Positions 1 through 56,200 of a DNA stretch of 60,000 bases are shown here, piece after piece; position 1 is the stretch's first letter, and each line of letters begins with the position of its first letter. Position numbers and translations under genes: made by a program. The DNA is from Lytechinus pictus. Its lineage: Eukaryota. The notes under the pieces are model-generated. The model searched no databases and was not told the DNA's origin. It saw only the letters and a list, made by a program, of their open reading frames with translations. Location of the stretch: the NCBI RefSeq assembly GCF_037042905.1, contig NC_087251.1, positions 4,280,001 to 4,340,000 of the forward strand, read 5' to 3'.

Positions 1-3000
1 TCTTTTCCAACTGGTGAATCAGCCTACAAGATTTAGAGACGGCCAGCTGGCAAACATTCTTGACCTGATACTAACAAATTCTGAAGATTCGGTGGATAAT
101 GTGTCATATAAAGCCGCACTAGGAAAAAGTGACCACATTGTGATTCAGTTCAATTTGAGTCTGGAGTTCAAGCAGGCTATGTCACACCCTCGATATGCTT
201 ATTTCAGAGGAAGATACAATGATATGAGAAACTTTGTTCAGGACCATCAGATTTTCGACTTTGAAGAGGATCAAGATGTGGATGACAAATATAACTCGTT
301 TAAGGACATTATTGACAAATTAACCGAGGAGTTTGTACCCAAGTCAACTGCATCTTCAACTACTAAAGCAGAACAAGGCATGGAATGTTCATCAAAGTCA
401 AAGGTCGGCTCAATCTAGATGTGTTTTCAATTGTATCAGAAATGAGACTACAAGAGTTATCAATCAAGCCAAAAGGAAGTTTGAGTCCAAGTTAATCTCC
501 GTATTGAAGACTAATTCCAAGAGTTTCTGGAAATATGTTCAAAGTAAACTCAAAATAAAGCACGACATCAGTCTTCTTTCAAGACCTGATGGATCTTTGA
601 CGTCTGATGATGAGGAGAAGGCAGTACTTTTGAACAATTTTTTCAGCTCTGTGTTTACGAAGGAGGATTTGATGAGCTTGCCAGATATTTCTGACAGAAG
701 TTATGCCGAACCTTTGACATCTATCAACATTGACACTGAAAATGTCCTTAAAGTGTTACAATCACTGGACCAATCCAAATCTCCAGGCCCAGATAGGGTA
801 CACGTCAAAGTACTCAAGGAACTCGGTGAACATGTCACCCCAACACTCTCAAATGTGTTCAATGCATCTCTAGATGAAGGAAAAGTTCCATCTAAGTGGA
901 AGCTAGCAGATGTAGTTCCATTGCACAAGAAGGGAGACAAGACAGCTCCAGGAAATTACCGTCCAGTTAGTTTGACAAGTGTGGTGAGCAAAATAATGGA
1001 AACCATGGTGAGGGAAGAAATAGTGCAGCATATGGATGAAAATAGTCTGTGGTCAGAGCACCAACACGGTTTTCGCAAAGGAAGATCTTGTTCATCTCAA
1101 CTTCTCAAAGTGATTGAAGATTGGAGTAATATTCTGGATAATGGTGGTAATGTGTACTGCATTTACCTCGACTACCAAAAGGCTTTTGACAGTTCCGCAT
1201 GAAAGACTGCTGGAGAAACTGCATGCTTATGGTATCAAAGGGAAGATTTTGCATTGGATTAAAGCATTTATATCAAATAGGAGCCAGAGAGTAAATGTCA
1301 ATGGATCCTTTTCACATCATGTACCTGTTACCAGTGGAATTCCTCAAGGGAGCGTGCTTGGCCCCGTTCTCTTCATTATTTTTATTAATGATCTCCCCGA
1401 GGTTATATCTGGTAACTCATCGACAGTCAAAATGTTTGCGGATGATACTAAACTCTACTCTTCTGTCAAAAATGATAATGATGGTGAGATGTTGCAGCAA
1501 GACTTGGACAGTCTTTCAAATTGGTCCAAAACATGGCAACTCCCGTTTAATACATCAAAATGTAAAGTGATGCACCTAGGTAGGAAAAGTTCAGACGGGA
1601 TTTATAAAGTGCAGAAAGATGGTATGATTTCCGACATTGCATCAGTATCGGAAGAGAAGGACTTGGGAGTTACTTTCGATGATAAGCTCAAGTTTAATCA
1701 GCAAGTCGGAAGAGTTGTCGCTGCAGCAAATAGGAAACTAGGAATGATCAGACGTACCTTTTAATCTTTTGATCAAGAAGGATTCCTACCAACCAAAAAA
1801 TTACTTTTTTTCTTTCCAGGGCTCTTTTTGGAGAAACTTAAAAATTTTCCAGGGCTACTTTTTCATTTTCCAGGGCTCTTTTTCCACTTTCCAGGGCTAC
1901 AATTTCTGGAGCTATTTCGCGGCTTTTTTGCGTTTGTGTGTGTGACTGTGTGTGTGTCTGTGTGTGTGTGCCACATTGAAGGGATGCTGGTCAGCAGTGC
2001 AGGGCTGCTCTGCTGCAGGCTCTGCTTTAACAAGATGTACTGTACATGCGGTGCGTTCAACGCTAGCGGGCGTGTATATTTTGCTTATTACATGACGTCA
2101 TCCAGCCACTGCCGAGAGCCAATTTATGAATGAAAATATAGTAAGCATGCGCAGTGCAAGCCTTCCATAGCCCCACACAGTATTCCACCAAAACAAGTGT
2201 GCAATACTCTATCACCTCGTACCAAAATCGACCTAGAATTTCACTTTCCTATAATTTATATGAATTATGAAAGGTGTTCTCGGAGGATCTATTTTCTCAC
2301 CGATACCTAACAGGTAAGTGAATTTCGATTACTTCTTGATTTTCGGTCAAAATCTTACGAATTAGCGTTGATATAGCATCGTGTTCGTTGGAGTTTGTAG
2401 AGTCTATCGCAACGTGTACAAAGTCAATTGATTTCCGGGTTTCGGAGCGTCGCGTGAATATGCATGAAATTGCAGAGTGTCGATAGTTTTCGATCGATAC
2501 TGGAGCAATCCGATCACGAACCAAGACCATTTCCCGCGTAGACAATGTGACCGGATATCGTAATCGCTATCGATACTTTTGCACGCAGTCCGAAGGAATT
2601 ATTTTGGCGACCACGTAGTCATGACGTGATCTGCGCGATTGGCCAATCAGCGGTCTCCGATTCGCTGAGCCGAGACGGTCTATTCGTTGTACACAGTCTA
2701 TGGACAATTTGCCACTGTGAAATATACAGTGTTGACGGGGGCGATTATGAGTTTTGCAGTCGCCCTCGTGTGAATGTTTTTAGCCCTTTTCCGGGGCTCT
2801 TTTTGGACTTTCCGGGGCGAATTCGCCCGCCGCCCCCGTGTAATTTTTTGGTTGATTCCTACTTCTGTACAAGTCACTAATAAGGCCTGTCTTAGAATAT
2901 TCCTCATGTGTATGGCATCCTATCTACAAAAAAGATATTGAGAAGCTTGAAAAGGTTCAACGAAGAGCCACCAAACTTCTGACTTCATTAAGGGACCTCA

Positions 3001-3472
3001 GCTACCCTGCACGCCTCCAAAGCATGAAACTGCCTTCACTTGCCTATAGGAGACACCGATCAGTCATGTTGCAGATCTCCAAATTAGTGACTGGTATTGA
3101 TGACTTTTGTGCAGACCAATTCTTTACACTGTCTAGATCAGAGAGAACACGTGGACACAATTTGAAAATTCTGAAGAATCGGGTTTGTTCAAAGCTGAGA
3201 CAAGGTGTATTCTCTCAGAGAGTTGTCACACAATGGAACAATCTACCAGATGAAGTTGTGAACAGTCGAACTGTCAACATGTTCAAATCACGTTTGGAAA
3301 AGGTGTGGAAAAGGTCCCTGAACATGTACAATCCAGATGAAAATTTTCTTTGTCCATGCTCTACCCATGCCACTCAACGCCAAATAAGTGTTAGGTACCA
3401 ACGTTTGGATACAGAGGGGCAAATAAGTTGTGTATAACTTTATGCCTACTTCCAAGGTAAATCCAAGGTAAA
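1..3472 (+). mobile_element. Decayed CR1-clade LINE (ORF2: APE C-terminus plus reverse transcriptase); 5' part lies outside the window; interrupted at 1790-2854
   Basis: Overlapping ORFs 14-418, 333-1202, 1114-1764 and 3024-3437 carry LDLILTN..LGKSDH, PGPD, NYRPVSLTS, QHGFRKGRSC, YLDYQKAFD, GIPQGSVLGP and MFADD. Removing the insert and one TSD copy restores EGFLLLYKSLIRPVLEYSSCVWHP..LEKVQRRATK. Frameshifts and a TAA at 1762-1764 inactivate it. The 3' tail is (TCCAAGGTAAA)x2 at 3451-3472. Confidence 0.93.
1790..2854. mobile_element. Non-autonomous TIR DNA transposon with 8-bp TSD (hAT, P or other 8-bp superfamily; unresolved)
   Basis: Perfect 15-bp TIRs CAACCAAAAAATTAC (1790-1804) and GTAATTTTTTGGTTG (2840-2854). 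TSD ATTCCTAC at 1782-1789 and 2855-2862. It splits the CR1 reading frame exactly. No transposase ORF. Confidence 0.92.
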
Positions 3473-3785: not shown

Positions 3786-4460
3786 GGAGAACGAAAGAAG
3801 GGGGTTTGGATAATTTTTCAAAATTAGTGGAGGGGACATAAGGAAGTCTTTCCGTAATTAGTGAGTGGAGCCAACGGAGTTCAGCGGAACAACCAATATA
3901 ACAGAGACCGAAACTTTTGGTCTAGATCTGGCCTAGTAGAAATGTCGGAAGTTTTATCCCATGTACATGATCTATGTAACATAGATCATATTCCTCTCTC
4001 AGAGGCTGAGAACTTGCTGTCTTCATTTTCTGATTTCATGGTCCCTTACTCTGTGAATCTGCCACACACCCTCCCAAATGGGAAGAAGAAAGGGAAGGCA
4101 GAATGGAATGCTGAGGTTAGTCAGGCTTATAAGCTGGCTAAGGAGTCTCGGAAGACCTGGCTACTGACCGAAACCACCAACAAGGACCAGGCCAATGAAG
4201 ACCGCATCATCGCAAAGAAGTCCTTCAAAAGTGCTTACGACAGTCCAGAGCGCATTTGAGGAACAATCTTCTCTCTGAAATTGAATCTGCCTCTGCGTCA
4301 AACAGCAAGCTATTTTATCGTCTTGTCAAAATGAATCTTGGCTCGGACTCTTTGCATCGTGAAGTTGATCATCTCTCCTACGGCGACCATGATTACAAAG
4401 ATGATGAAATGCTTCTTGGCTGGCAACTTTATTTCACTGCCCTTTCCTCTGATGGCTCCA

Positions 4461-7400
4461 GGGTCATTCTCAGGAAAACGTATCAATTGATGGGGAGAAA
4501 AATCGAAAAAATGAAGTCAACAGAATGGTTTAAAAGATACATTTTGTGAAAGCACTATAGATGAGAAAGTGGCAACAAAAAAGGGGCAAGTCGATGATGG
4601 GCCAATTTGAAGTACTGACCTGATTAATTCAAGCAAAGAATATCAACGTTACGGAAGTTAATCATTAACATTGTCCACTATGTGACTCAATTATATCACT
4701 TTTGGAATGAATAAAATAGAAATGCACACAATGTAGCTGAAGAGTGGTTAAAAGAATTATATTTCATGAAATAAAAATGCTTGCAAGATAGAAAAATATA
4801 CAGTATTCCTCTTAAGATGCAATATGTTACCAAATAAGATAAAAGAAAATATTACACAATAATCATTGCACATCTTTCATTCAGCACACTGTTCGCAATT
4901 TGAATGAGGCAACCACCAAATAACTTTGAATCTATAATTTGGATCCTAAGCAATGCAAGACCAATTATGGGAATCTCACGATACTTCATAATCTAACCCC
5001 TTAGTGGCATTTGCACTTGTTAATCTTTTGTTACGGAAGTTAAATCAAGTCACTAACTGAAATACGTATTGTGTTAGCTTGGCAAAAATCCTATTCTCGG
5101 AAATCGCATCACTTTTTTTCTAATAAAGCAAAAATAAATATTCAAGACATGGCTCAATTTATTTTTCGAGTGGAATAGTTTGCCCATCCCTTCTCAAAAA
5201 AAGGTTTAACACGAGCAACTTTCATTACTTTTGTTGTTCTTGTTCTTAGTTGAAATGAGAAAACAAAATAACCGGGACACATAATTGTTGTACATCTTAA
5301 AAGTGTCGGTCCCTCAACAAAAAAATATTCTCAGAAATTATAGAAGCCAGGATCTTACCAAGTCATACTCTGGCAAGTCGATTCTCCATTATAGAAATCG
5401 AATAAATGAAATAAGAAAAACGATTATTTTGGTAGTGACTTACTTCTTAAAAGAATGTGAGAAATAAACTATTTGAGTAATGTCTATTCACAACAAATCT
5501 ATCATTCTTGGTCCCATGAGTTGATGGAGAGTCATAAAATCACAATGAGAGACCAAACTTGTCAAAGCTTAAAAAAAAAAAGTTTAAACAAACCACTTAC
5601 TAATAAACCTGGAAACCATGGATATATCCCTGCTGGAACTTTGAGTAGGCACAAAACAGATGACAGTCAGTACATGCCCCCTCCCCTCATTTCTTATTAA
5701 TCGAAATTGCATACATTTTTTTCATATTTTTATATTCCGTTTGTAAATCGATGACTGAAAAAAGCTACTCTGTTCGACTTGTTAAAATCAAGATTGAATA
5801 TCAGGGCAATTGTATGTTGGACTTTGTTGCCGTTATGGAAGTTAAGTTGAATAAAGTAATATAAATATATTATGTTTTGCTTGAACCTTTTAATCTTCAA
5901 GACATGCTACGATAGTTATGATATAGGTCGATTATGTCGGGGGCAGTTGTATGGACATAAATGAACACAGTTCTTCTTGGGGAGGTTACACCTGGTGATG
6001 AGTTTGTTTTGATAAAAGCATAAAATAGATGAAATATTGATGAAATTTTGATGTGAAGTCAGAAATGAGCAGCTCTTCCATATGTCATGTGACATTGATA
6101 AAAAGATCAAATTTGTGAAAAAAAAATACTTGTGGAGCATAATTATGTAATACGCAGGTTATGTCACATCCCTTCGATACGAAGAATATTCTATTCATGT
6201 CACCATGAGGATGAATACATGAAAGAGCTGCTCGCATAAGACATCACAGATTTATTCTCACATGGATTTTATACTATTTCTCACCAACATACATGTATTT
6301 TCTACTTTTATTAAAACCAAGTAGGATTCATTATGAACTTCATTGATTTCCACATCAACCATGTTTTATGTGCGTATAGCTGGTATGTTTTCAGGTAGAT
6401 ATGTTCTTCATTCCGTTTCAAAAGCCATGAACACATGCTCTTCCACAAAAAACAGGCATTTGTTCTTCTTTGTGGGTGATGGAGACGGAACATTTTGCAG
6501 AATGTCTTTGTTGTCTACCCAGATCTTATCCTTGCGTTTTGGCCACTTCAGAAACCGATTACCTTCACCTGTGAATTCCATGAAGTTGATCTCGGCATCT
6601 TCCTCGTCAACCTTGATAATCTGACCAATGTAGCGTTTGCCATCATATCGGGCTACCACCCAGTCACCAACAGTACGGTGGATCTGAGAAGATTCATCAG
6701 GCGTTGCAGATTTTCCAGTGTACTCATCTTGACCTTGTACTGAACAGTTTTGAAGAGCTTCAATTGAAACATTTGATCTTGTATTGTCAAGTAACGAGTG
6801 GACTTTCCAGCCACTGCATGGTGATGTACAAGGGTCGCTTCTGCACATGTCGCAGTAGCAACTCGTTTCTCTCACGGCCACACTATGTTTCCCGACGGGT
6901 TTCACCGCATGCAACTTGAATGTGCCCGGAATTGGTTTGATAGCCTGGTTTTCTGATAGGATATCTGAACATCTGTTGATGTCATCCTGTGTGTAGGAGA
7001 AGAACACAACCTTACTTGACTGTTCAGATTCTGTCCAGCGAATGAAGTCTGAGGCATCTTGGATAGCAAACTTCCCCCTCTTTACCGCCATGTCTGCAGA
7101 GCGTTTAACGCTTCCACCAAGACCATCGCATGGACCTTTCCCATGCCCACTCTCAAGAAAGTTCCATTCGCCTTCAACACCGAAATGTTCCTTGTGATTA
7201 CACAACATCTGGAAGATGGTCTTGTTTCGGTACTGGCTTGTTGGGGAGTCAGTCAAATAGTGGATCTTCTGTAGCAATGGATACTCTTTCTTCAGCAGGG
7301 GGATGAACGCCTTGAGAATCGTAAACACTGTTTTGGCATTGTGGGATGTGTTTTGAGAAACACCTACATAGCTCTGACATTCTTTATTTTTCTTTTGAGG

Positions 7401-10046
7401 GAAATATGTAACCATGGTGTGTAGGCTTACTGACTGAGCATTCCAGTACGCTGATTGGACTTCTTCCATGGCAGAACATGTATAATTTTCTGCAAAATCC
7501 ATCCACACCAGTACTTCTCCTTCCTTTAGGTTCTCTCGAAGTTTCCTCAGTTCTTTGTACTGCTTTGCAATTCTTCCAACATGAGCACGGAAGTCTGGAA
7601 GTGAGGCACGAAGTAAGTTGAGAAACTCCCTCCTTGTCACTTCAGTCTGAACCTCCTTCCACCTAAATTTGCCCTTGTCGCATACCCTTTTCCATTCCTT
7701 GAAAATCATAGTTGCGATTGAAGTAGGAAGTTGGGCATCGATGTTCTCGATCATTCCTTCATCAGACTGATTCTGAGAGATGAAGTTGTCCGGATTTAAG
7801 GTGCACTTAATCCCGTTCCTTCGGAGGCATTTGAGTTTAAGGAGTAGGTTTTGGTGGCGACTACATAGGCATGTCTTTCTCGTCGCAAATGATGCCAAAA
7901 TAAGATGAGGTGGACGAAGTCTACAGAAAGAAGCTCTGGAAATGGTGCATCTTGGATTCTCTGTCAGGAATTTCAAGTGGAGATTTTTCATGTAATCATG
8001 AAGAACACGTTTCTGCTTGATTACAGAATTTTCCTTGTGGGAATCCTTCTTTCCGGGTAGAGGTGAAGAATTGTCTTCCCTTTCCAAAAAGTCAACAACT
8101 GTTCCTTTCATATTCCTTGTCTTGGATGCATTCTCCTTTCTATCCCTACCCATCTTTATGATCTTACTTCTTGAATTCCTAGTCGCTTTGCTGAAGGCTG
8201 AAATCAAACGATACTTCTTAAGCAGCTTTGACACCGCTTCCATTGCCGGCTTTGCATTCCGTTTTGCCTTCCTTTTCCAGGATTTCAGGTCTACCTTAAA
8301 AGGATGCAGTACAGAGTTAGCTATAAGCATTCTCTTTCCAAACTTGGTGTGAATTTTTTGACCCACAGATTGGCAGTCCAGGCGGGTTTGAGCCCTCGGA
8401 GACGCTGGAACATCTGTAGTGCTGGTATGGTTGATGACCTGTTCCCGCGTGGATTCTGTGAGTTTCTTCTGACGATCCAATCTCTTCTTCAATTTCTGTC
8501 TTTGTTTCAAAAGCTCTCTGTTTCTCTTCCTCAAGTTAGCAACCTCAACAGAAGCCCTGCGACATACAGACCGTTGTTTCATCAGTTTCTTTGCAGTTTT
8601 CTCATTCTCCAACTTGCGTCTAGACAAGGCAGGTAGTTTAACTATCAGACGTCTTGTTGTTATTGTTTCTGTACGCTCTATCTGGCGTTTTTTATGCTTG
8701 TTCACTCGGTTCAAAACCGCCCTTCTCCTTACTTTTAGCTCTTTCTTGGAAAGCATGCCGACTGGTATGTATGAGCGGCGTTTTCTCTCCCTTTCCTTGG
8801 CCATGAAGGCTTTTTTGTTTCTCCTCTTCTGCCTTTCTCTCCACAGTTTCTGCCGTTCAGCATTAGACAATGCCATGACACCTGTTTTGGAAGGAAAACA
8901 AACTATCAGCCTCAGCAAAGTACAGCAGTGTAGTGTATTAACTTCCGTAACGATTATTGAAAGAACTACGTAGCAAAGGAAAATAGACATTTTAAGTTCT
9001 AAGAAAGATGCAAATGCTTTCCATTTTATTATATGAATTATTGAAACTTTAAAAAACATTGAATATCGAATATAATTACCAGGAAATTATTTTGATTGGC
9101 AATTGTCCAACTGTATAAAGTGATAGTGAAAATAAGTTGTGTAATAATTATTTGACAGGGATGAATGCCCAGGATTTTTATCGGTACCTAGGTTGAGGGT
9201 ACCTTATATGATTTATTTCTGTATGATCCGGAGTCATTCAGTTTAGCACAAATTTCTGGCATATTAAATAAAAAATGTTACGGAAGTTAATGCGTTACGG
9301 AAGTTAGTGTCTTTATGCTTCATTAGCCGACCCAGTCCTTACTTAGAACCCACGTTTTGTAAAACTGTATTTTTTATGAAAGATGTCCCTTATCTAATAG
9401 AACCCTGAAACCTCAACAGCACTGACAAAGTGATCATTTCAATAAAGTGCGTTACGGATGTTAAGCCTGTTCAGTCATACATTTAATTTTCTAAAATAAT
9501 CCTTCATTTCCGCAAAATACATGAAACGTAACTTCTTATTCCCTATCAATTATTAATTAATGAATATTACTCTACTTGCAGACTCAAATTCACATAATAT
9601 CAATCAGTTTGAAAGGAAGAAAAAAATCATTGCAATATTCGTTACGGAGGTTAAAATTAATTTGGGACAATGTTAAAAGTGAAAATACTCACCAATTGAT
9701 CGCTAAATACTAGAATGAACGCAAAATGTCGGATGACCACACCAACATGCCCACGCCTGACAACAGTGTAGGAAAGAAATAAAGGCTACATAGGAAAGAG
9801 AATGATAGCAAATTCTAAAACTGACCAGAGACAGTGTCGATTTTAACAAAAGACAGAAACAAAAGGCTTCTAAAATCAATGGAATACTTTACTAGCCACT
9901 GGTTGCAGATGATTTGAAGAGCTTGTCTATTCATGTCATTGTCTTGATAAAATGTCTTAGAAAATGTTCAGGAGTGTAGAGCTAGGGGCCATAATATAGT
10001 TGGGACACATTTTTTGTGAATTGTAACGTTTTTTTGAGAATGACCC
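4461..10046 (-). mobile_element. Full-length Sola2-type DNA transposon (5,586 bp), candidate autonomous element
   Basis: TIRs GGGTCATTCTCAGGAAAACGTATCAATT and (reverse complement) GGGTCATTCTCAAAAAAACGTTACAATT: first 12 bp perfect, 24/28 overall. 4-bp TSD TCCA at 4457-4460 and 10047-10050. GRG termini plus a 4-bp TSD are Sola2 features. Contains an intact transposase ORF. Confidence 0.88.
6408..8876 (-). CDS. Sola2-type DDD transposase, 822 aa from the ATG at 8876 (MALSNAERQKLWRERQK...)
   Basis: Uninterrupted ORF with VWMDFAENY, EVQSAYW, YLTDSPTSQYRNK and ESGHGKGPCDGLGGSVKR. Basic coiled N-terminus, CLCSRH and CYCDMC Cys clusters, C-terminal Tudor-like VGDWVVARYDGKRYIGQI. A splice acceptor ends at 8882, 5 nt upstream of the ATG, and a GTGAGT donor lies at 9692, suggesting a 5'UTR intron. 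AATAAA near 6307-6312. Confidence 0.88.
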   Translation of the reverse strand: MALSNAERQKLWRERQKRRNKKAFMAKERERKRRSYIPVGMLSKKELKVRRRAVLNRVNKHKKRQIERTETITTRRLIVKLPALSRRKLENEKTAKKLMKQRSVCRRASVEVANLRKRNRELLKQRQKLKKRLDRQKKLTESTREQVINHTSTTDVPASPRAQTRLDCQSVGQKIHTKFGKRMLIANSVLHPFKVDLKSWKRKAKRNAKPAMEAVSKLLKKYRLISAFSKATRNSRSKIIKMGRDRKENASKTRNMKGTVVDFLEREDNSSPLPGKKDSHKENSVIKQKRVLHDYMKNLHLKFLTENPRCTISRASFCRLRPPHLILASFATRKTCLCSRHQNLLLKLKCLRRNGIKCTLNPDNFISQNQSDEGMIENIDAQLPTSIATMIFKEWKRVCDKGKFRWKEVQTEVTRREFLNLLRASLPDFRAHVGRIAKQYKELRKLRENLKEGEVLVWMDFAENYTCSAMEEVQSAYWNAQSVSLHTMVTYFPQKKNKECQSYVGVSQNTSHNAKTVFTILKAFIPLLKKEYPLLQKIHYLTDSPTSQYRNKTIFQMLCNHKEHFGVEGEWNFLESGHGKGPCDGLGGSVKRSADMAVKRGKFAIQDASDFIRWTESEQSSKVVFFSYTQDDINRCSDILSENQAIKPIPGTFKLHAVKPVGKHSVAVRETSCYCDMCRSDPCTSPCSGWKVHSLLDNTRSNVSIEALQNCSVQGQDEYTGKSATPDESSQIHRTVGDWVVARYDGKRYIGQIIKVDEEDAEINFMEFTGEGNRFLKWPKRKDKIWVDNKDILQNVPSPSPTKKNKCLFFVEEHVFMAFETE

Positions 10047-12722
10047 TCCAACACCTCTCACATAAGCTCCGCTCAAGGACAATCTCCGGCAGTTTTCCTG
10101 CCCCATGAGGATTCCTCTGCTCCTGAGTTAAGACATGGTATCCAACTTACATCACAAGACCTGGATGAAGCTATCAAGCACCTAAAGTTGGGCAAGGCTG
10201 CTGGCGAGGACAATGTTTCTCCTGAACACCTGAAGCACCTGGGTGACACAGCTCGTCGTCTTCTACTTGCCCTGTTCAACACCTTCCTACATCATGCCCA
10301 CTGCCCGAAAATCTTCAAGCAAGGCCTCATTCTCCCTCTTCACAAGGGTAAAGGGAAGGATCCACATGACCCAAGGAACTACAGAGGCATTACTCTTACA
10401 TCTGTCCTATGCAAACTTCTAAAACTCTGCCTCAAACCACAACTGATACGTCAGCTCTACATCAGCGACACACCCGATGAACTCCAGTTTGGTTTCAGAA
10501 AGGGATTCTCATGTTCCCTCACATCCATCTCACTTGAGTTGATCATCGAACTGAACACTGCACATAAATTCCCTACATATCTTGCTCTCTTGGATGCAGA
10601 GAAGGCCTTTGACACTGTGTGGCATAGAGGGCTCTTCGAGAAGCTTAAGTCATCTCATCTAGACCCCAGTATTCAAGACATGTTGGAATCAATGTACCAT
10701 GGGATTGAAAGCAAGGTCTTCTGGAAGGGTGCAGCCAGTAACCCAATCCCCATCACCCAAGGCGTACGTCAAGGAGGGGTCCTGTCTCCTTTACTCTACA
10801 CAGCTTTTGTGGACGGTCTGATCAAGGAGCTGCGAGAGAAGAACCTCGGCAGCTCAATAGATGGCCGATTCTCTGGTGTTGTTCTTGCGGATGATGCCAC
10901 ATTCAACTATGCAGGGCTCTGGCACTATAAAATCAACCCTTCCAAAAGTGCAGTGATTGTCTTCAACAACACCAAACATCCCACAAGATCCTCTTGGACA
11001 GTCAATGGAAGTATTGTTGATGTAAAAACCAGTCATCCCCACCTTGGGATCTCAAAATCCAGTTCTCGGTCCGACCCGACAGACAGCATCATCGGAACTG
11101 GCCTTCGAATATTCTACTCCCTGTCTGGCTCTGGGGCATATACTGGCAGCCTCACCCCCATGTTGGTCACACACCTTTGGCGAACCTTCTGTATTCCAAG
11201 GATGCTGCATGGCTCTTCTATTATTACCAAACTCACTAAATCCATGCTACAGAAGCTCGACAAAGCCCAAACGCACCTATTCAAGAGGGTTCTTGGAGTC
11301 CCAATAACAGCTGCAGACGAGATAGTACATCTTCTCACCGACCTCTTGCCTCTCTCCATCCAGATAGATCTCGATAGATTGCTCCTCTTCGGCCAACTCT
11401 CCAATTTGGATCACAACCGTTTTGAATACCGGACATTTCTAGCAGCTCTCGGAGCATGGACTCCAACTATCCAAATCATCCAGGACACGTTGAGAAAGTA
11501 TGACCTTCCTGATCTTCACACCAATATCTCGAAACCATTTCCTTACTCCACCTTTAAGAAACTGGTTAAGTACAAGATATATACTGCCGTCAATAATCTC
11601 GTTGCACAGGGCACTCGTGCAAAGTCTTCTCTCAAGTTCTGGATCGATCACATCCCACCCTCCACCAATCTCCTTTATCCGAAGACCACACATTCGCCTG
11701 TCATCCGATATATGCGCTCATTGTCAGAGCCCAATTACTTTCGTCCACGTACCCAACTCAATGTCGCCTCTACACATTAGGAAAGTCCTCCACCCGTATT
11801 TGCCCTCTTTGTGACTCTTAATGATGAGACAGTAGAACACTTTGTCGGATCATGCTCCTCTCTTGGTCACCTCCGCCAAGACTTCATATGCAGAGTCGAG
11901 GAGTGTCTCACCGACCACCCAGATTACATGGACTTGTATACAGTTGAGTTGTTGATCCACACCAATTTTCCTGTGCTACCCTATAACCCATCAACCTGGT
12001 CTCCCTTCCGAAGTGAATAATAGTCTGCTCCTCAAATCTCTCTTTTTTCTACATAAAATTCATGACCACCGCTCCAACCTGATGTTGAATCCCTAACTTA
12101 TCGGACTGGAATTGATATACTTGTTTCTGAGAATCTCCAAAACAGTGGAGGGATCACCTAAGAGTAAGAGAGAGAGAGATTTAGGGCTAGATCTTTTAGA
12201 AGTAGAAATCTCGGAGGCGAAAGTTTCAGGTTTTTCAACGGTACGTGGAGATGAATGGGAAGGAATACCTGGCTTTGTTGAGAGTAAGCATATGTTAGTA
12301 AATGATTTTTACTCTCTAGAAGCCTCCTGGCTAAGTGGGCCTTCGTTCAAGATAATCATTTAAAAAAAATTAAAATCTAACAACTTAGACAAAACCCAGT
12401 CATGCCAGTCGCCCGAATTGGATTACACATGCAGGCTTGCACTAACAACACACTAACGTCGGTGAATGGGGATGATTGATAGTAAAATGTCAGGCCGCCA
12501 AATGACAGAAATTGTAAAATAAATCCCCAGAAACGACGGTTATTCCTGTCTAATGTTTGACTAGCATTAATACACGGACGGCTCCTGCTCCTGGCCTGGG
12601 CTCCGGCCCGCTCGCCTTCGGCTTCGCGGGCCGGAGCACCCTGGCATGCCTGGGTTAAGTTTAGAATTAGATCAGGGAAATTATTAATATTACTTGGGCT
12701 TGTATTGCAAGGATGAACTTAC

Positions 12723-14681: not shown

Positions 14682-17600
14682 ATGAGTGGTGGAAGAGCAG
14701 CAGCAAGTGTCATGAGGGCAATTAGAGTAAGCAAATTTGGTGCACCAGAGGTTATGAAGGTGGAAGGTGGATTAGCGATTCCTGAGCCAAAATCTAGCCA
14801 GGTGTGTATTACAGAATCAGAATTGTTTCATTTGTATAAAATTGTAATGTGATATTTTCACTTTGGCATTTTTACTGCCCATCATCATTATCATGCGGTT
14901 TAGTTACCCATATTAAAATTATGTCCTTATCTCATCACCATCTAAAAGATGAACAAATTGAAGGCCTGCTCGCGCTCGATGGATGCATGTTTAAGGAGAT
15001 TCCGACCCAAATGAAAAAGCAGAGGAACAGGTTGAAAGTTTGGACAAATGATAAATGTGGGCCCCATCTTACAAAGAGTTATGATTGATGCGATCAATTG
15101 CAACTATGGACGGCCATCGTCATCATCCATTATGCATGTTTCTTCAAAATATTTTCTAGCTGTGATGTATATTCATTGTTTTCTTGAAAATTCACTTCGC
15201 TTCTCTTTGCATACAAAGGACATTGCGCAAATTTTCGTGGAAGAGAATTATGACACTGATGGATTTCCATAGAGTTACGATTGATCGGATCAATCGTAAC
15301 TCTTTGTAAGACGGGGCCCTGTTATAAAATACTATAACTTGTATTTTCTAATTGACCATGAATGTTATAATCTTTTAGTGAAATTGTAAATTTGATATTT
15401 TCGTCTCATTTTTCAGATGGTAAAAAATTTCATTTTTTGTCTGATTTCTTTCACTCTTTGACCCTTCAATTTGTATCCTTTTTTACACTTGTCATTTAAT
15501 ACCAAGGTTGTATTCCGCTTCAAGCTGAATCAAAAGTACTCAGTATTGCATGTTTCAGTGAAAAAATACTGCAAACTTGAATTTTAAACAAATGGAAGCT
15601 CCCATTACAACTCGACCAACATTGAACATTTAGAAGATATTTATATGCAGTCATGTCCACACACAATTATTATGTTCCATAATCCAGTCCAGTGGATGAA
15701 AGATGTCTGTATATCTGTTAATACAGGGAACAATTTTTTCTGGTATCGCATCGTGATTTGTGCCACAGTGTTTTATTACTGCTTCACCCAATTTCTTTTG
15801 TGTAGCAATTATATTACATTGGACTATAAAGGCCTACAGAACATTATTGAAAGCGTTTCCCTTGCAACCAGAAATGCTAAGTACACTTATTCTTTGTATT
15901 ATATAGTTATTATTGTGAACATTATACCATTTATGACTGTAATCATCATGATACCACCACCACCAACACCAACACCACCATTATCATCATCATCATTATA
16001 ATCATTATCATCATCATTATAATCATCATCATTTTTATCACCCTATAGTATCATAACCGGCAGCATATTGACAATGATAATTTCTGTTGCTGCTCATTCA
16101 GCCTACACACCAAGGAATGATAATTTTTTTTGTCTTTCTCAGGTGTTGATAAAGGTTGGTGCAGCAGGGATTAACCCGGTGGATACCTATATTAGATCTG
16201 GTAATAGAGCAACCTTACCTCCTCTCCCATACACCCCTGGAGCAGACGCAGCAGGAACAGTGGAAGGAATAGGACCCAATGTCAAAAAATATAAAGTAAG
16301 ATGGACACATTTAATATACCTTATGCAGGGTGCTACATAACTTTTTAGAAGTGCTTGCCTGGTTGGGCAAGAACATTTTTAAATAGTTTGAATATACTTG
16401 CCCAGAAATTTATTTCACTTGCCCGAAAAAATCCTTGAAAAAAAAAGTTAAACCTCTTCAAAAGAAAGTTTTGCGGTTTTATAAACCATTGACCTTTTTC
16501 TCTCTTTTATATGAACTGATCTACCTTGTTATTGCATTTCTTTTTCCAAAGTGATTTTATCTTGCCTGCCATGACCAAAATTAGGGTCAATCATATCGAC
16601 CCTAATTTTGGTCAGTCTACTGTGAGAATTTTGCTTTTTCCTGTGTGAATTTTGCTTGCCCAATTCAGGCAAGTAGTTTTGGTCTTTACTTCAAAATACT
16701 TGCCCGACTCTAAAATTTACTTTCCCCGGGCAATCGGGCAAGTGCTTTTGTAGCACCCTGCCTTATGTATATGACATCATAATCATGGGGCCCTCCCTCA
16801 GATGATAGAAATTTGTTTAAATAGAGATGTGCCAGCTGCATCCAAGGCAAAGGCTTCATCTTCAAAGATGGCGGCATGATGACATAAAAACATATGTCTG
16901 TGGCTGGGATCAAGGAGATCTTACATTTTTGCGGAAGGGGGGTGGGGATGGTCAGAAGTATAAAAAAAAGCTATGATGTTCTTCTGCCTGAGTAAGATTT
17001 ATGAGAAAGCTCTTGTTTAATCCCAAATTATCATAGGAGCATTTGATGTTTGTGAGGATTTTTACAATTTTGGCAAGTGAACATTATGTGTGGAATTGCC
17101 TAGAATGTGTTGTAACTTTTCCTTTGAACTGTGTGTGTCTGTCATGGTTTGCACATCATAATAATATGACAACCATTCATCGGGAACATTATATCATCTT
17201 GTTTTGATACTGATGATAATAATCAAATACCCTGGTGTAATATTGTATAGTCCTAGTTATGGAAATCCTTTTCTTTTATTTTCATTTTATATTGACTTTA
17301 CAGCCTGGTGATAGGGTTTATGTCTGTAAATCTCCAGGCCTCCCAGGAACCTATGCAGAATATACACTTGCAGAAGAAAAGGATGTTTTTTGTCTTCCTG
17401 CTAATCTTGACTTCAAACAAGGAGCCACATTAGGGATACCATACTTCACTGCTTATCGAGCTCTCTTCCAACAGTAAGATTTAACTTGATGTTTGAAATT
17501 GCCAGATTTAAAAGAATATTTTTATGAAGAAAATGTCTATTGTCTCTTTGCAGCCATAAATGATAATATTAAATAAATTTACAAATTTGAAAATCTACTT

Positions 17601-24792: not shown

Positions 24793-27700
24793 CTACATGT
24801 GTTTGACAAAGTCACACTCAGAGTGGGCATCTCGTGAGCCTGTATTTAGCAAACACTTCAATCTCCCAGCGGTGTTGCGAATAAGATCATACCCTTGACA
24901 AGTATGATCTGTTGCTCCTAAGCAAGCAGAAGCACACTGAAGAGCAGATCGGACTGGAAAGCCATCTCCCAAACCACATGTACCACCTTGCTTCTGTGAA
25001 ACATTCCTCTTGAAGATGGCTGACATTGTGTTTGACGGTCCATTTGATAATGTAGTTGACCTGGGCAGATTTTCCGATCCACGAGTGTTGGTTGACATCC
25101 CTTCTGTAGTTGCTGTTGAACTGATGGTATTTTCTGATCCATGAGCATTGGGTGACATCCCTTCTGTAGTAGCTGTTGAACTGATGGTATTTTCTGATCC
25201 TTGAGCATTGGTTGACATCCCTTCTGTAGTAGCTGTTGATCTGATGGTATTTTCTGATCCATGAGTGTTGTTGGTTGACATCCCTGTTGTGGTAGCTGTC
25301 GATCTGATGGTGGCTGTTCTTGGGACGGTGATAGTTGAAGATCCTTCACTTCTGTCCTCTGTGCTTCTTGCAGAGCTTTCTTCAGACACCATCGTAGCAG
25401 TTACTGACTCAGTTGATTCAAATATTGGGTTCGCAGTTGACAATTCCTCCGAAGCAACATCTGTTGTTAATTCCTCCGAAGCAATTTCTGTTGCTAAACC
25501 TTTAATAACAAGATAAAAGAAAATTTCATGTTAGGCTTTGTTATGAGTGTACTTTGTTGTTGAGTGCTAGTGAGGTTGTTCACTTATCATCAAGGATGAT
25601 GAGTGTTGTGTCTTGTGTGATGATAAGACTGTCTTTGTTGATCCTTGGAGAGTAGGTGTAGTAGTGACTTGCATTGGTTGGTGTGACTCCTGGATGGATG
25701 TGGTTGGTGATTCAGTGCTAGACTCTATCAGGTATCGGCCGTTGCGAAATGTGAAAGAACATGAAGGTTTATTTTTTCAGGTAGTTCTGGTAAAATCATT
25801 GACTACAATCTTCTACTGTAATTCATAAAGATAACCTATCGCCTTTTATTTTGTGTTTTTAAATTGGTTCGTAAGTAACAAAGGCTATATTTGAGATTTT
25901 TGGAACAGAGTACAAGATATTGTGCGATATTATAAAACGTTAGAAGTATTGGTTATTAATAAAAAGTGGAGCGCCTCTGGCAGTCTCACCTGCATCACAT
26001 GATTCGATATAGCAGCAGTGCTGACTTTGAAAACTACTATAACATAATTATTCACAAAAACACAATTCATATAATGATACAATACTATGTTCAATGACAA
26101 TAAATGACAGTTGACTTTGATCATGCGACCTAAGACTTGTCAGTGACCTAAGACTTGTCAGTGATACTTGATTACTCCTATATCCAAATTTCATAAACTA
26201 TATAAACTTTGAAAGTTATGACAGCAATCTAATAAATACCTCCAAAATGGCCAAAGTTCATTGACCTTAAATGACCTTTGACTTTGGTCATGTGACCTAA
26301 AATTCTCATGAGATGTTCAGTGATACTTGATTACTCTTATGTCCAAGTTTTGTGAACTAGATCCAAACACTTTCGGAGTTATGATGGTTGAATTCAACAA
26401 TTCCCCACAACATGGCCAAAGTTCTTTGACCTTGGTCATGTGACCATCATGAGATGTTCAGCGATACTTGATTACTCTTATGTCTAGGTTTTGTGAATCA
26501 GATCCATAAACTTTCGAAGTTATGATGGTAATTCAACAAATACCCCCAACTTGGCCAAAGTTTATTGACCTTAAATGACTCCCACAGGAAGTTCAGTGAT
26601 ACTTGATTACCCTTATGGCCAAGTTTCATGAACTAGGTCCATATAATTTCAAAGTTATGATGAAATTTCAAAAACTTAACCTTAGGTTAAGATTGTGATG
26701 TTGATTCCCCAACATGGTCTAAGTTCATTTACCCTAAATGACCTTTGACCTTGGTCATGTGACCTGAAACTCATGCAGGATATTCAGTAATACTTGATTA
26801 ATCTTATGTTCAAGTTTCATGAACTAGGTCCATGCACTTTTTAAGTTATGCTGTCATTTCAAAAACTTAACCTTCGGTTAAGATTTGATGTTGACGACGC
26901 CGCCGCCGTCGGAAAAGCGGCGCCTATAGTCTCACTCTGCTATGCAGGTGAGACAAAAATGGATTTGAAGGTGGTCAGAAATAGAGAGAGCGAGAGGTGG
27001 GGAATAAATAAAGTAAAAGTGGGCTGGTAAAAGCATCAGGGGCCTGTTTCATAAAGGACTTGCAACTGTTGTAACTTTGCCATTATGGCAACTACCATGG
27101 TAATCTTGATTCTGATTGGCTGCTGAGCCCTGTTGCCGTGGTAGTTGCCATTATGGCAAAATTACAACAGTTGCAAGTCCTTTATGAAACGGGTCCCTGA
27201 TTTGTTTCAGGATTACGTGATATGTCATAGATGAGAGAAGAGAAATATTGTCAAATATTACTTGAAATCGAAAGAAAGAATACTTTATTATCTATACATA
27301 CCAGATAAACACACAACAACTCCAGTATCCGAGCAGTTTTTCAATGTCAATCCACCAGTGTCTCCTTTATCATAGGCCAAACATGAATAATTCTCCTGAT
27401 TATTATCTACATCCAGATCAGTATAGAAATAAATGAAACTGAAAAATGTCAGACAGTATTGATTGACTGATTGTATTTGTTCTTATCAATTTCAACTTCA
27501 ACAAAATTTACAACTAAAAGCAAAATAAAAAATACAGAAATGAAAAAAAATGAACTCATTGGAAATCAGAGCATATTCCCTTCAATAAATAACTGATCAA
27601 AAGATATTATTCTTCAATGAAATTCAAATCGTATCTAACAAGTTTCAATAGAATAATTAAAAGAATACTATAATGAGGTCAAGGTTTTTATGCCTATACA

Positions 27701-41744: not shown

Positions 41745-42680
41745 TGACATCACCACCATTATCTTCATCATCATCACCATAATTTACCACCGTTATAATT
41801 GTTATCACCACAACCATCCTCATCACCATCACTACCACCACCAATATCACCATCACCAATATCACCATCACCATCATCATCACCACATCATCATCACCAC
41901 ATCATCATCACCACCATCATCATCATCACCATCATCATCATCACCTTCATCATTATCACCTTCATCATTATCATCATCATTACCACCACCATCATCATCA
42001 CGATTATCATCATCATCATCACCTTTATCAATATTGTTATCAATATCACCAAATCATCATCATCATCATCATCACCATCACCACCATTATCTTAATCACC
42101 ACCACCATCATCATTACCATCATCATTACCATCATCATCATCATCACCTTCACCATCATCAACACCGTCATCATCACCTTCATCATCATCATCACCACTA
42201 TGATCTTCATCATCACCCCCACCATCCTCATCTTCATCATCATCCTCATCACCATTCACCACCATCATCTTCATCACCATGCACCATCACCACCACCACC
42301 ACTATAATTATCATCACCACCATCATTATCACCACCACCATCCTCATAGCCACCACTCTCATCATCATCATCCTCATCAGCAGTTTCTTAATCATTACCG
42401 TCTTCACCATTTTCATCATATCTATCGATCATTGCCCCCATAATCATCATCACTGATACCATCACTCCCGCTACCATCCTCATCTTTGTCATCATCACCA
42501 CCATCATCATCGCCACCATTATCGCCAACACCACCATCATCATCTTTAATATCATCATCATCATCACCTTCATATTCATATCATCATGATCATGATCATC
42601 ATTATCATCATTATGGCCATCCTCATCCTGGTTATCATCATCATCATCTTCATCAACATGATATTTATCAGCATCATTAT
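41745..42680. repeat. ~0.9-kb degenerate (CAT/CAC)n trinucleotide tract
   Basis: Continuous CAT/CAC/TAT triplets; produces spurious His-, Ser- and Ile-rich ORFs in all frames. Confidence 0.95.
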
Positions 42681-49769: not shown

Positions 49770-51555
<1,786 letters not shown>

Positions 51556-53265: not shown

Positions 53266-56200
53266 CTGTAATGAAGCTATGGTTCATCTGAAAACATTGA
53301 TTTAATTACTTACAGCTTTCTGCTTGATGTATGGTAGATGCTATTGGTCAGAATATTTTGAAATTCATGAAAATTTAATTTTAATGGTTGAAGAAATTGA
53401 AATTGAGTATTGAAATTTACTTCATCCCTTTCTTGCATATTGGCATGATAAAAGTTTTAATACGCAAACGGCAAAGGCCTATATTTATCCCCAACAAATG
53501 TTAAGATAAACAGTTATCATTTGGGAATCATTATGGCTCCAATATGGTCTGCCCTCTCCCTGCCACCCCCCAAAAAAAAATCTCTACGAACTGAGATCCT
53601 ATAAGAAAATCTTGACATATTTTTGTAGCCCATTTAATATTTGCCTTTTGTGGTTAAACTGGTTGGGTCAACCCTCTAAAATTTGATATTTTGTTAGATA
53701 ATTTAGTTTTTATGCTTTCAATTAATGTTTCGTAAATTAAAAGTGAATCATCAAATGTGTTTTAATTCTGTTATTAATAGAGCTCCAAAAGGAAATAAAT
53801 AAGTTACGTAAATGTATTTGGCTTGTTATTCATCTGATCACATTCCTGAGAGTACACATCTGTAATTGTTATGGTCGGATTTCCATCTCAGAACTGTATG
53901 TGTTCTTCCATTGATTTTATAACTAGACGTTTGTCGATGTGAGCGGCTAGGACCTAATCGAGCGTATGGCAAAGATATCAGTGCAGGGGATACGTCAGAG
54001 TGATTTCCTTCTAGAACTGGAGAAGCGCTTACACCCGAAGTTCATTACGAAAAGAGGGGGAATTTGGAGGTCAACATGATCATCATCGTCATCGTTGGCA
54101 TATTTCTGATTTCAGGCGAAATATCAGTGAGATGGGAGAATCGGTAGGGTTGTTGCCGTTTGGTAAAAGCATTTAACAAGCAGGAGAATCACTTCACTGT
54201 TTGACTCTTGAAATGCAAGATTGTAGGACATACAAGAGAGCATATAGAGAAGAGGATATTCAGATTTTTCTTTCCTCAGATGAAGGATGTGTGATAGATA
54301 ATGATAATGTGCAGGTGAACAAGAGTACATACACCTGTAATGTTTTCAAGTAATCTGAAAGAGGGTTGTCAACCTCCTCCGTCAATCATCATGAAGCTGA
54401 TTAGTTTCAGAATCTTCTAATAGACAAGAGGTTGTACTCCAGAACCAAAGTTCAAGAATGCAACAGATAATCTATGTACAGAAATAAATATGATCTGGTT
54501 ATACTGAATTTCATGGAATATTCTCTATTGTTTTCTTCAAATTATGGGTTCAGAAATTCCACCTTTTTGTATTTTTTTTTTTAATTTTCTATGAGAGAAC
54601 TTTTGCTCATATGGTGCCATGAGCCATTATGTGCGCAATCATTAAGTTGAGATTGTTAGTATTATAAAACAAGAAAAATGCAGTGATTGTAACTATTTTA
54701 TACTGACATAATGGACATTAACTCAGATTTAGGTCTCATATACAGTATCTGTTGCAATCATTATCATAATTAAATTTAGATCCTCATCTAAAGTGACTTC
54801 CATCTACTAGTACTATGAGTGTATACATTCCAAAATACCATTCTATTTAATATCCAGGAATGACATTTGGTAGAGGTATGTCAGTATGACTATTACCCAA
54901 AGTGTAAAAGCAGAAGTATATGATTGAAGAAACATTTGTAATAAGAAATACAATTTATCAAATTACAGTTCTGGATATTTCACACCCAGGAGGTATAACT
55001 GTATTTAATAAATTTACTTGGTAACGTCACTATCAGACAAGTTACATTTAGGAACAAAGAATACACCACTCTTACCATTATTTTTTTTGCAGGGAAATAA
55101 ACTTTTCTTGTAAGAAGTATCACTATTATTATTAAGTTTATTGTTCCTCATTATTTTAGTATAGAGTCTGGTGTGTACATTTAAATTCATTTTGCAATAT
55201 CCAAAAGGAGATTTTTTTTTTATATTAACCAAGTAGAATGATTTTGTTTTGGAGTAGGCTTATGTCGTTTGACTCTAGTCTCTGCTGTAAGAATTCCAGC
55301 TATGAAATATAAGTGGATAACTTCTCTAAATTAAATGCCTTTATTTATTTTGAGTACTCTACCAAATGTTCTACTAGGTCTGCCACTGCCCTCTTTAGTT
55401 TATTTTAAATGAACTTCTTGAACCATGTCTGACCATCTGACCCACATGATGATACTCATTTGAGAGTTGTATGATTGCAAAAGCAATCTGTTCTAACTTT
55501 TCCCTGTCCAAAGAATTTACCTGGGTAATAAATCCAACTCAAGATAAAATGGTTCAATCGGATAAACACACACAAACATGAAAGATGCTCCCATCTCCAT
55601 CTTTTAAGAAAAACAAATTAATAAGCAAAATCTCCTCTTTTTGCAGTGCCACCCCCCCCCCCCCGACATAAACTTACTAAGAATACTCCTTGAATTTTGT
55701 TTACCCGGTATGACATTCATTTTACAAAGTTTATTGTTCAGAATAAAATTTTTAATACTCTTTTTCATAGTTCTAGATGATGAGATGCAACCACAGTTAC
55801 TTCTTTTGGTAATGATATTGTTTACAGGATCAGGGAATTTACATTGAATATATGTTTGCTTGATTTGAAAGTATTACATCCCATTCATTGAGATGTAATC
55901 TTTCTTTGGGATTTGACATTCACATTCATCCATATTTTATAATTATGTGGAAAAGTAATTTGAATCTGTTATTCACTCTTTTTAAAATTCCATTGCCAGT
56001 CCCACAGTTGTTAAATACACAATTTATATTCTGCATGCCTTGGCAGTAAATAGTCAACTGTGGGAATTTCAAATCAAGTGTGCTCTTATAAATCCTGGTT
56101 AGAATTATGGATTCGTGTAGGCTATTTAGCATTCTGCCCCAACTGCTTTGGTGTTCCATGTGTATCTAATGGGTGCATGAGTAAGGCAGGCATCAGCTCA

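Follow-up and report, generated by a model that had tools for sequence, protein, structure and literature searches.

The window analysed here, 60 kb of Lytechinus pictus DNA (contig NC_087251.1, positions 4,280,001 to 4,340,000 of the forward strand; all positions below are counted from its first letter), contains a complete Sola2 DNA transposon of 5586 bp (4461..10046, minus strand), whose non-coding arms carry eight dispersed copies of a 14-base word, scanned for as GTTACGGAAGTTAA. The main feature found, which goes beyond anything claimed in the original prediction for this element, is that the words of this element and of its relatives lie on a lattice of about 179 bp. We lean, by a narrow preference, towards the reading that the 14-mers are bound by the transposase of the element itself, probably lie in the linkers that separate positioned nucleosomes, and would help to gather the two ends for excision.

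A scan at up to two mismatches returned exactly eight matches in the window, all of them within the element. The expectation from 100 dinucleotide shuffles was a mean of 0.43 matches with a largest value of 3, on which a chance origin was rejected, and the remainder of the 60-kb window served as the control for the frequency of the word. The positions and strands first reported for the eight copies were thereby recovered. Exact copies stand at 4648..4661, 5030..5043 and 9277..9290 on the plus strand and, inverted, at 8938..8951 on the minus strand; single mismatches are present in the plus-strand copies at 5832..5845 (where the CG is lost), 9294..9307, 9451..9464 and 9641..9654. No copy with two mismatches occurs in the window, none lies within the intact coding sequence (CDS) of the 822-aa transposase (6408..8876, minus strand), and outside the element there is one three-mismatch copy, at 53727; the word is thus confined to the non-coding arms, as had been claimed. 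Read in the orientation of the gene, the series runs from the element end over 399 bp to the centre of the copy at 9641, then 190 bp to 9451, 157 bp to 9294, 17 bp to its close partner at 9277 and 339 bp to the inverted copy at 8938; beyond the CDS, 802 bp (off the lattice) separate the copies at 5832 and 5030, 382 bp (two lattice steps) those at 5030 and 4648, and the centre of the last lies 194 bp from the other end. The close pair recurs at 14-17 bp in most relatives.

Relatives were collected by a profile scan of metagenomes (80 loci, the best 80 of 210 confirmed) and from one pair of bacterial bins (five loci), while a profile scan of viral contigs gave none. The 86 sequences, window included, formed 72 families at 80% DNA identity, and the 63 families whose arms came to 600 bases or more were judged by one rule, a word being a 14-mer in four or more dispersed clusters. 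Such a family-specific word was found in 37 of the 63; the maximum in 315 Markov shuffles was three clusters. The CG at motif positions 5-6 was a search rule of this uniform scan and is not counted as evidence; in an unconstrained search most relatives again had a dispersed word of their own, which contained CG in most families. The family consensus is (G/A)T(A/C/T/G)ACG-N-A-N-N-TT(A/T)C, or GTAACG-N4-TTAC in short form, with a nearly constant left half GTAACG, and its most regular form is the palindrome GTAAC-N4-GTTAC. The element L081, with a transposase 40% identical to that of the window, bears 11 copies of a word that differs by one base. Thirteen families of metagenome assembly Ga0224511 carry 12 different 14-mers, and the four elements of assembly JBEVXV01 four different words, although either assembly may hold several hosts. 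Across the families, 101.5 kb of arms contain 284 sites, as against 2 in 87.6 kb of CDS. Comparison of sister copies gave 3 substitutions in 252 positions for the words and 171 in 2061 for the spacers (p 3e-6), so that the words are about sevenfold more conserved, a figure favoured both by the choice of sites at up to two mismatches in both copies and by the double counting of shared sites. The orientation of the copies is less regular: the original prediction that both arms point the same way is true of the window and fails as a general rule, since the last downstream copy has the same direction in 12 of 26 families (the window among them) and is mirrored in the other 14; some of the 12 probably have truncated arms.

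Two side observations concern these relatives. Five Sola2 elements, L081-L085, lie on contigs of two bacterial bins titled Sedimenticola sp., where one of their transposases is annotated as a bacterial hypothetical protein (P0015); this is likely to be animal-host contamination of GTDB genomes. In L053, L059 and L062 dense clusters of a AATTGTCC-type repeat were found at the ends.

An indication of what reads the word came from covariation with the transposase, for which 712 alignment columns were ranked per motif position in the 32 families with an N-terminus and three or more clusters. Base 3 gave residues 8, 12 and 5 as its three highest columns. Arg8 was present in all nine families with a base other than A at this position and in none of the 23 with A, which makes it the only error-free column, the next having one error. 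The Arg8 families occupy three places in the tree (L078; the window with L030; the clade of L017, L018, L066, L038, L043 and L052), and L081, the sister of the window and L030, has Ile8 together with base A. For the right half of the word the top columns include residues 58, 57 and 54, while at residue 51 Arg accompanies A13 in 14 of 17 families and Asn accompanies T13 in 13 of 14, L079 being a nested reversal. It is likely, from these alignments, that residues 5, 8 and 12 pair with the left half and residues 51, 54, 57 and 58 with the right. Residues 8, 12 and 5 would fall on one face of a predicted helix, with a spacing equal to that of the base-reading residues of bZIP basic regions. The candidate reader of the 14-mer is accordingly small: residues 1-62 (8691..8876, minus strand) comprise three short basic segments with predicted helices, and these segments very probably fold into helices by which the halves of the pseudo-palindrome GTAAC-N4-GTTAC are recognised. 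The region had no Pfam match, its profile gave nothing below E 2.8 against PDB, and the ESM Atlas was uninformative both for residues 1-75 (best score 0.79) and for residues 728-822 (best score 0.76). With a word that is family-specific, absent from coding DNA, conserved beyond its spacers and covarying with the transposase N-terminus, the proposal of transposase-binding sites far from the ends gained support, as did that of an uncharacterised Sola2 cis architecture.

Among 164 gaps between successive clusters in the 37 families, 76 measure 150-205 bp and 74 measure 325-400 bp; of the others, a single one falls at 210-310 bp, eight are shorter (seven of these in two tandem-like loci) and five are longer. 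The tandem-like arrays L053 and L057 are included in this count and excluded from the spacer, rhythm, covariation, start-codon-distance and grid-fit analyses. The periodogram of the gaps has its peak at 178-180 bp, where it reaches 0.676, the highest value of 300 null trials being 0.215, and 231 of 270 sites lie within 20 bp of a 179-bp grid fitted per arm. In L081 the gaps are 189, 155, 16, 345, 177, 186, CDS, 359, 365, 371, and in L083 they are 186, 155, 15, 331, 19, 370, 21, 190, 21, CDS, 368, 356, 379. Where extra sites occur they divide double gaps into singles (177+186 in L081, 178+190 in L032, 172+179 in L020). The spacers themselves are dissimilar: 4 of 249 pairs within 16 elements showed similarity (none of the window's 10), and of 78 pairs taken from different families one could be aligned at z>5, a filter of 184-196 bp having been used only to select homologous spacers for this comparison and not as evidence for their length. 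Weight is added to the lattice by the persistence of its lengths over unalignable DNA and by the fall of lineage-specific sites on the grid. Unconstrained distances drift, that from the last site to the start codon ranging over 26-768 bp and that from the CDS to the first site being variable as well. In the window and in the few relatives whose two ends were located, most contigs being broken within an arm, the distance from element end to outer site is 194-198, 380-402 or 540-548 bases (399/194 in the window, 402/198 in L032, 380/194 in L060, 540/548 in L052).

Two kinds of natural variation in the arms were noted. Recent internal duplications are present at L013:5355-6061, L015:1473-2196 and L021:3102-3990, with units of 358-370 bp, equal to two lattice steps, so that the grid is kept. 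In the upstream arm of L001-L008 a segregating 34-bp deletion cuts a 154-bp gap to 120 bp, which provides a natural off-lattice allele.

The period of 178-180 bp, with its gaps of one or two units, fits the length of a nucleosome core plus linker, for which about 180 bp is a usual repeat. Autocorrelation of AA/TT in the pooled spacers (151 spacers, 37 kb) gave a peak at 10.4 bp with z 5.8, the controls being -0.1 for host flanks, 0.8 for the rest of the window, 2.0 for CDS and -1.0 for motif-free arms. The rhythm was phase-locked to the sites at 10.15-10.2 bp, with pooled p of 0.0005-0.002 and of 0.0005 for all spacers taken from either side; 20 such tests were run, of which 4 had p above 0.05. 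The G+C and A-tract profiles across the spacers were flat. We consider it moderately likely that each gap of 150-205 bp holds one nucleosome and each gap of 325-400 bp two, the ends lying one or two steps from the outermost sites.

A further possible connection with chromatin lies in the last 90 residues of the transposase, a conserved domain with invariant Tyr, Gly, Pro and Asp in which Tyr and Phe columns are kept. A putative Tudor/Agenet-like domain (about residues 733-790; 6507..6680, minus strand) is present here in the window, at L010:2408-2644 and at 29 other loci. The C-terminal profile built from 31 relatives matched Agenet chains of PDB at E 0.002-0.08 and the PHF19 Tudor domain at E 0.05-0.09, and Pfam gave weak Chromo_MORC2, Tudor_4 and Agenet matches below the curated cut-offs. 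No mention of a Tudor-like domain on Sola2 transposases was found in the full texts searched.

Taken together, these data suggest the following mechanism. The basic N-terminal segments would bind each 14-mer, one segment per half, and close pairs 14-22 bp apart would take two transposase molecules. With the sites in linkers one or two nucleosomes apart, the transposase would decorate both chromatinised arms, on which the Tudor-like domain might perhaps also hold it, and the arms would be drawn together as a pair, in a complex bringing the catalytic domains to the 28-bp ends. By analogy with the inner sites of inverted repeat/direct repeat (IR/DR) elements, it seems fairly probable that the transposase molecules on the two chromatinised arms oligomerise and pair the ends, as opposed to having a purely regulatory role. 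It is tempting to speculate, with rather less than even confidence, that a whole animal transposon clade encodes its own chromatin architecture: a private 14-bp address in the linkers of a self-positioned nucleosome array over both arms, a tiny three-helix reader whose simple code could be re-programmed (base 3 read by residue 8, base 13 by residue 51), a Tudor domain reading the neighbouring nucleosomes, and a transpososome built on nucleosomes.

Several observations weigh against the reading of transposase sites phased to nucleosomes. With regard to the spacing, the 37 families share ancestry, so that the 164 gaps are not independent and the number of independent intervals is nearer ten; moreover, gaps of 802 bp in the window, 444 bp in L052 and 493 bp in L020, as well as the 120-bp allele of L001-L008, do not conform to the lattice. 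Four clusters were lacking in 26 of the 63 families, many of which have short arms, and L053, L059 and L062 (clustered short repeats) and L069 and L075 (long terminal inverted repeats, TIRs) represent other architectures. Concerning the nucleosomes, a gap of 155-157 bp leaves 141-143 free bases, just too few for the 147 bp of a core, and the AA/TT rhythm is modest: z exceeds zero in 24 of 35 families and falls to 2.7 when the five strongest are removed, the rhythm is nil in the window (-0.2), L081 (-0.1) and L030 (0.0), and z is as high as 1.9 in control sequence from the window matched for GC. With respect to the protein, motif positions 1, 2, 4, 9, 11 and 14 covary best with columns outside the N-terminus, base 3 changes only three times on the tree, four proteins are frameshifted near the covarying N-terminal residues, and the Tudor-like domain, whose matches are weak, also occurs in the lattice-free families L069, L074 and L075.

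Another explanation, unlikely though it keeps a real share of credence, is that the words are transposase sites whose spacing follows from the looping geometry of histone-free DNA between transposase oligomers, as in a scaffold of the Mu-enhancer or IR/DR type with bendable, A/T-phased spacers, the likeness to nucleosomes being coincidental. All the evidence for transposase binding applies to it equally; some gaps are tightly fixed (186-193 bp in most upstream arms), as expected of a protein-set ruler sooner than of an array of nucleosomes, phased AA/TT would bend naked DNA too, and a gap of 155-157 bp is tight for a nucleosome core. However, the occurrence of one- and two-unit gaps with almost none between is explained by a bead of fixed size and not by free looping, and the phase-locked period of 10.15-10.2 bp is nearer to the nucleosomal than to the free-DNA value.

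That the sites are mainly autoregulatory, the transposase positioning or locking nucleosomes over promoter, intron and 3' untranslated region (UTR) and so repressing the element, appears distinctly unlikely. Five of the eight window copies are upstream of the CDS, one of them at 69 bp from the start codon, a site precedes the ATG by 26-110 bp in many relatives, and the putative Tudor-like domain could read silent chromatin; nevertheless, the lattice is maintained just as well beyond the stop codon, both element ends serve as its anchors, and high-copy relatives that lack the CDS retain arms and word.

We judge it very unlikely that the words are sites of a host transcription factor (ETS, or a bZIP protein reading ACG/TTAC halves) serving germ-line expression or nucleosome positioning. 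The idea arose from the CGGAAGT contained in the window word, and both the nearly constant left half and the resemblance of some family words to bZIP sites speak for it, but different words occur within one assembly, and the left half and transposase residue 8 change exactly together. The ETS sites of the original prediction were abandoned because the CGGAAG core occurs in 3 of 37 family consensuses; an array of such sites was likewise rejected, any GGA(A/T) core being present in only 7 of the 37 and in 56 of 281 sites. Finally, it is barely credible that the arms are decayed tandem arrays of a unit of about 180 bp, with words and spacing as passive remnants, a view to which the recent internal duplications of about 360 bp in L013, L015 and L021 lend something, since 245 of 249 spacer pairs lack similarity (none of the 10 in the window showing any between successive units), no array was found in the element by TRF, orientations are mixed, all copies in an element change together between families, and the words are so much better conserved than the spacers.

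The element itself is delimited by GGG..CCC ends and by a 28-bp imperfect TIR at 4461..4488 (plus strand, the gene's 3' end) and 10019..10046 (minus strand, the gene's 5' end); the latter has the half-word CGTTAC at its bases 19-24. The ends agree with the 5'-GRG...CYC-3' termini of Sola2, a rule attributed to Bao 2009. The target-site duplication (TSD), TCCA, is found at 4457..4460 and 10047..10050 (both plus strand). Contigs of runs X1 and X2 connect 4455 to 10046 and leave out 5590 bases, equal to the 5586-bp element plus the 4-base TSD, and hence represent the empty insertion site. The insertion took place within the reading frame of a host long interspersed nuclear element (LINE) reverse transcriptase, which the element splits (10047..11780, plus strand; RVT_1, E 1.5e-22). 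A near-full copy of the element is present in a related organism. Read depth reaches about 4900 on the arms (4451-5053 and 8873-10078) against 32 in the interior, which implies very high-copy relatives having only arms without the CDS, likely miniature inverted-repeat transposable elements. These bear the word as an inverted pair 5-6 bases apart, and the window copy is without such a partner at 8952-8975.

Among 3775 candidates, 576 homologues of the 822-aa open reading frame were recovered, the named ones being from molluscs and a sea cucumber. In 44 homologues D460, D543 and E575 are invariant and D584 nearly so, which makes them candidates for an RNase H-like DDD/E catalytic set. The Sola2 motif series (R-D-S-PG-K, QKR, RP, C-C-H-N, DFAENY, QS-W, TLH, HN, SD-QY-N, WNF-HGKGPCDG-KR) is present, as judged by eye against the published alignment (supplementary file S10 of PMC3627910), in which Sola2-1_BM and Sola2-1_Hrobusta are, by the same comparison, the nearest rows. 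The whole transposase had no match in Pfam, which contains no Sola model, and membership of Sola2 therefore rests on this by-eye match and on the 4-bp TSD.

Five of the copies had been placed in an intron of the 5' UTR. A likely 3' splice site lies at 8882..8900 (minus strand), with a pyrimidine tract and its AG at 8883-8882. A contig whose run has an uncertain library type matches 5156-8883 perfectly and then departs from the genomic sequence for 27 letters. Such a break at the predicted acceptor implies an upstream exon ending in AG, which is given by donors 9202 and 9187 and not by the strong donor candidate, the G at 9692 (TTG|GT). The acceptor is thus likely, but the donor at 9692 misfits and the placement of the five copies within the intron is not established. 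Within 6% of one raw RNA run 78 reads were obtained, of which none fell on the CDS and 69 were less than 95% alike, and these are uninformative on the intron.

Elsewhere in the window, a second and older LINE reverse-transcriptase frame at 324-3437 (324-1764 and 2856-3437) is split by about 1.1 kb of DNA, possibly another insertion, which includes 21-bp repeats at 1836-1900. An exon-sized frame at 16023-16340 presumably resembles a zeta-crystallin/quinone-reductase segment. On the minus strand, 24793-25530 contains a frame rich in Ser and Thr, whose four 60-bp tandem repeats precede a Cys-rich stretch. A 141-bp tandem repeat in 2.6 copies and extended microsatellites of ATC and TATC occupy 26307-26662, 41748-42677 and 49772-51456.

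Several short transposase sites in both orientations and away from the cleavage sites are familiar from the subterminal repeats of hAT and CACTA elements, the transpositional enhancer of phage Mu and the internal site of Tc3. Such sites keep to the few hundred bases next to the ends or form a single block, and we know of no lattice of nucleosome length among them. A nucleosome lying between the direct repeats was reportedly proposed by Yusa et al. in 2004, and the founding Sola paper is said to be that of Bao, Jurka and Kapitonov (2009); both were outside the full-text search. In the literature covered, including the accessible portions of PMC5751038 and bioRxiv 10.1101/2021.09.26.461848, no nucleosome-length lattice of transposase sites was found. 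For Sola2, the accessible full texts gave no account of internal sites, of a rule for their spacing, or of a DNA-binding or Tudor domain, although Repbase reports and bioRxiv supplements, likewise outside the search, and the founding paper may mention such repeats.

As far as the accessible text of Bao and Jurka (2013, PMC3627910) goes, the element resembles Sola2 in its 4-bp TSD, the length stated there, its short imperfect TIRs and its transposase motif series. It also recalls the IR/DR elements Sleeping Beauty, Frog Prince and Minos, in which, according to the available parts of PMC7827188 and PMC3680223, inner transposase sites about 200 bp inside the ends are needed for ordered assembly of the synaptic complex, which they seed, and transposition is enhanced by condensed chromatin; the word 'nucleosome' is absent from PMC3680223. 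The likeness consists in internal sites well inside both ends. In IR/DR elements of the Tc1/mariner group, however, as the same portions of these sources have it, each long TIR encloses two sites that repeat the terminal site, whereas the clade of the window has 28-bp TIRs and up to 14 sites that run 1-1.5 kb into unrelated arms, in mixed orientation and on a 179-bp lattice of one or two steps, its terminal repeat holding at most a half-word and its transposase giving no match to a paired-like domain. TIRs over 200 bp with two same-direction sites each, which would define an IR/DR element, were not found here, the TIR being 28 bp and the arms not inverted repeats of each other. The STPR domain of FMBP-1 (accessible part of PMC4856987) offers an analogy only, the N-terminal profile having neither a PDB match below E 2.8 nor a Pfam STPR match.

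How cut-and-paste transposases find and pair their ends in chromatin is an open question, the best hint being the help that condensed chromatin gives to IR/DR elements (accessible portions of PMC3680223). The present clade offers a sharp test, its sites standing at one or two nucleosome lengths over dissimilar spacers; since the lengths are kept while the spacers differ, a shift of 90 bp as compared with one of 180 bp would distinguish nucleosome phasing from mere site number. The cis requirements of Sola2 elements are likely to include arms of over 1 kb, far beyond the 28-bp TIRs, and their transposases may carry a putative Tudor-like chromatin reader together with a candidate DNA-binding domain of about 60 residues, for which matched variants of protein and DNA are available in 32 families.

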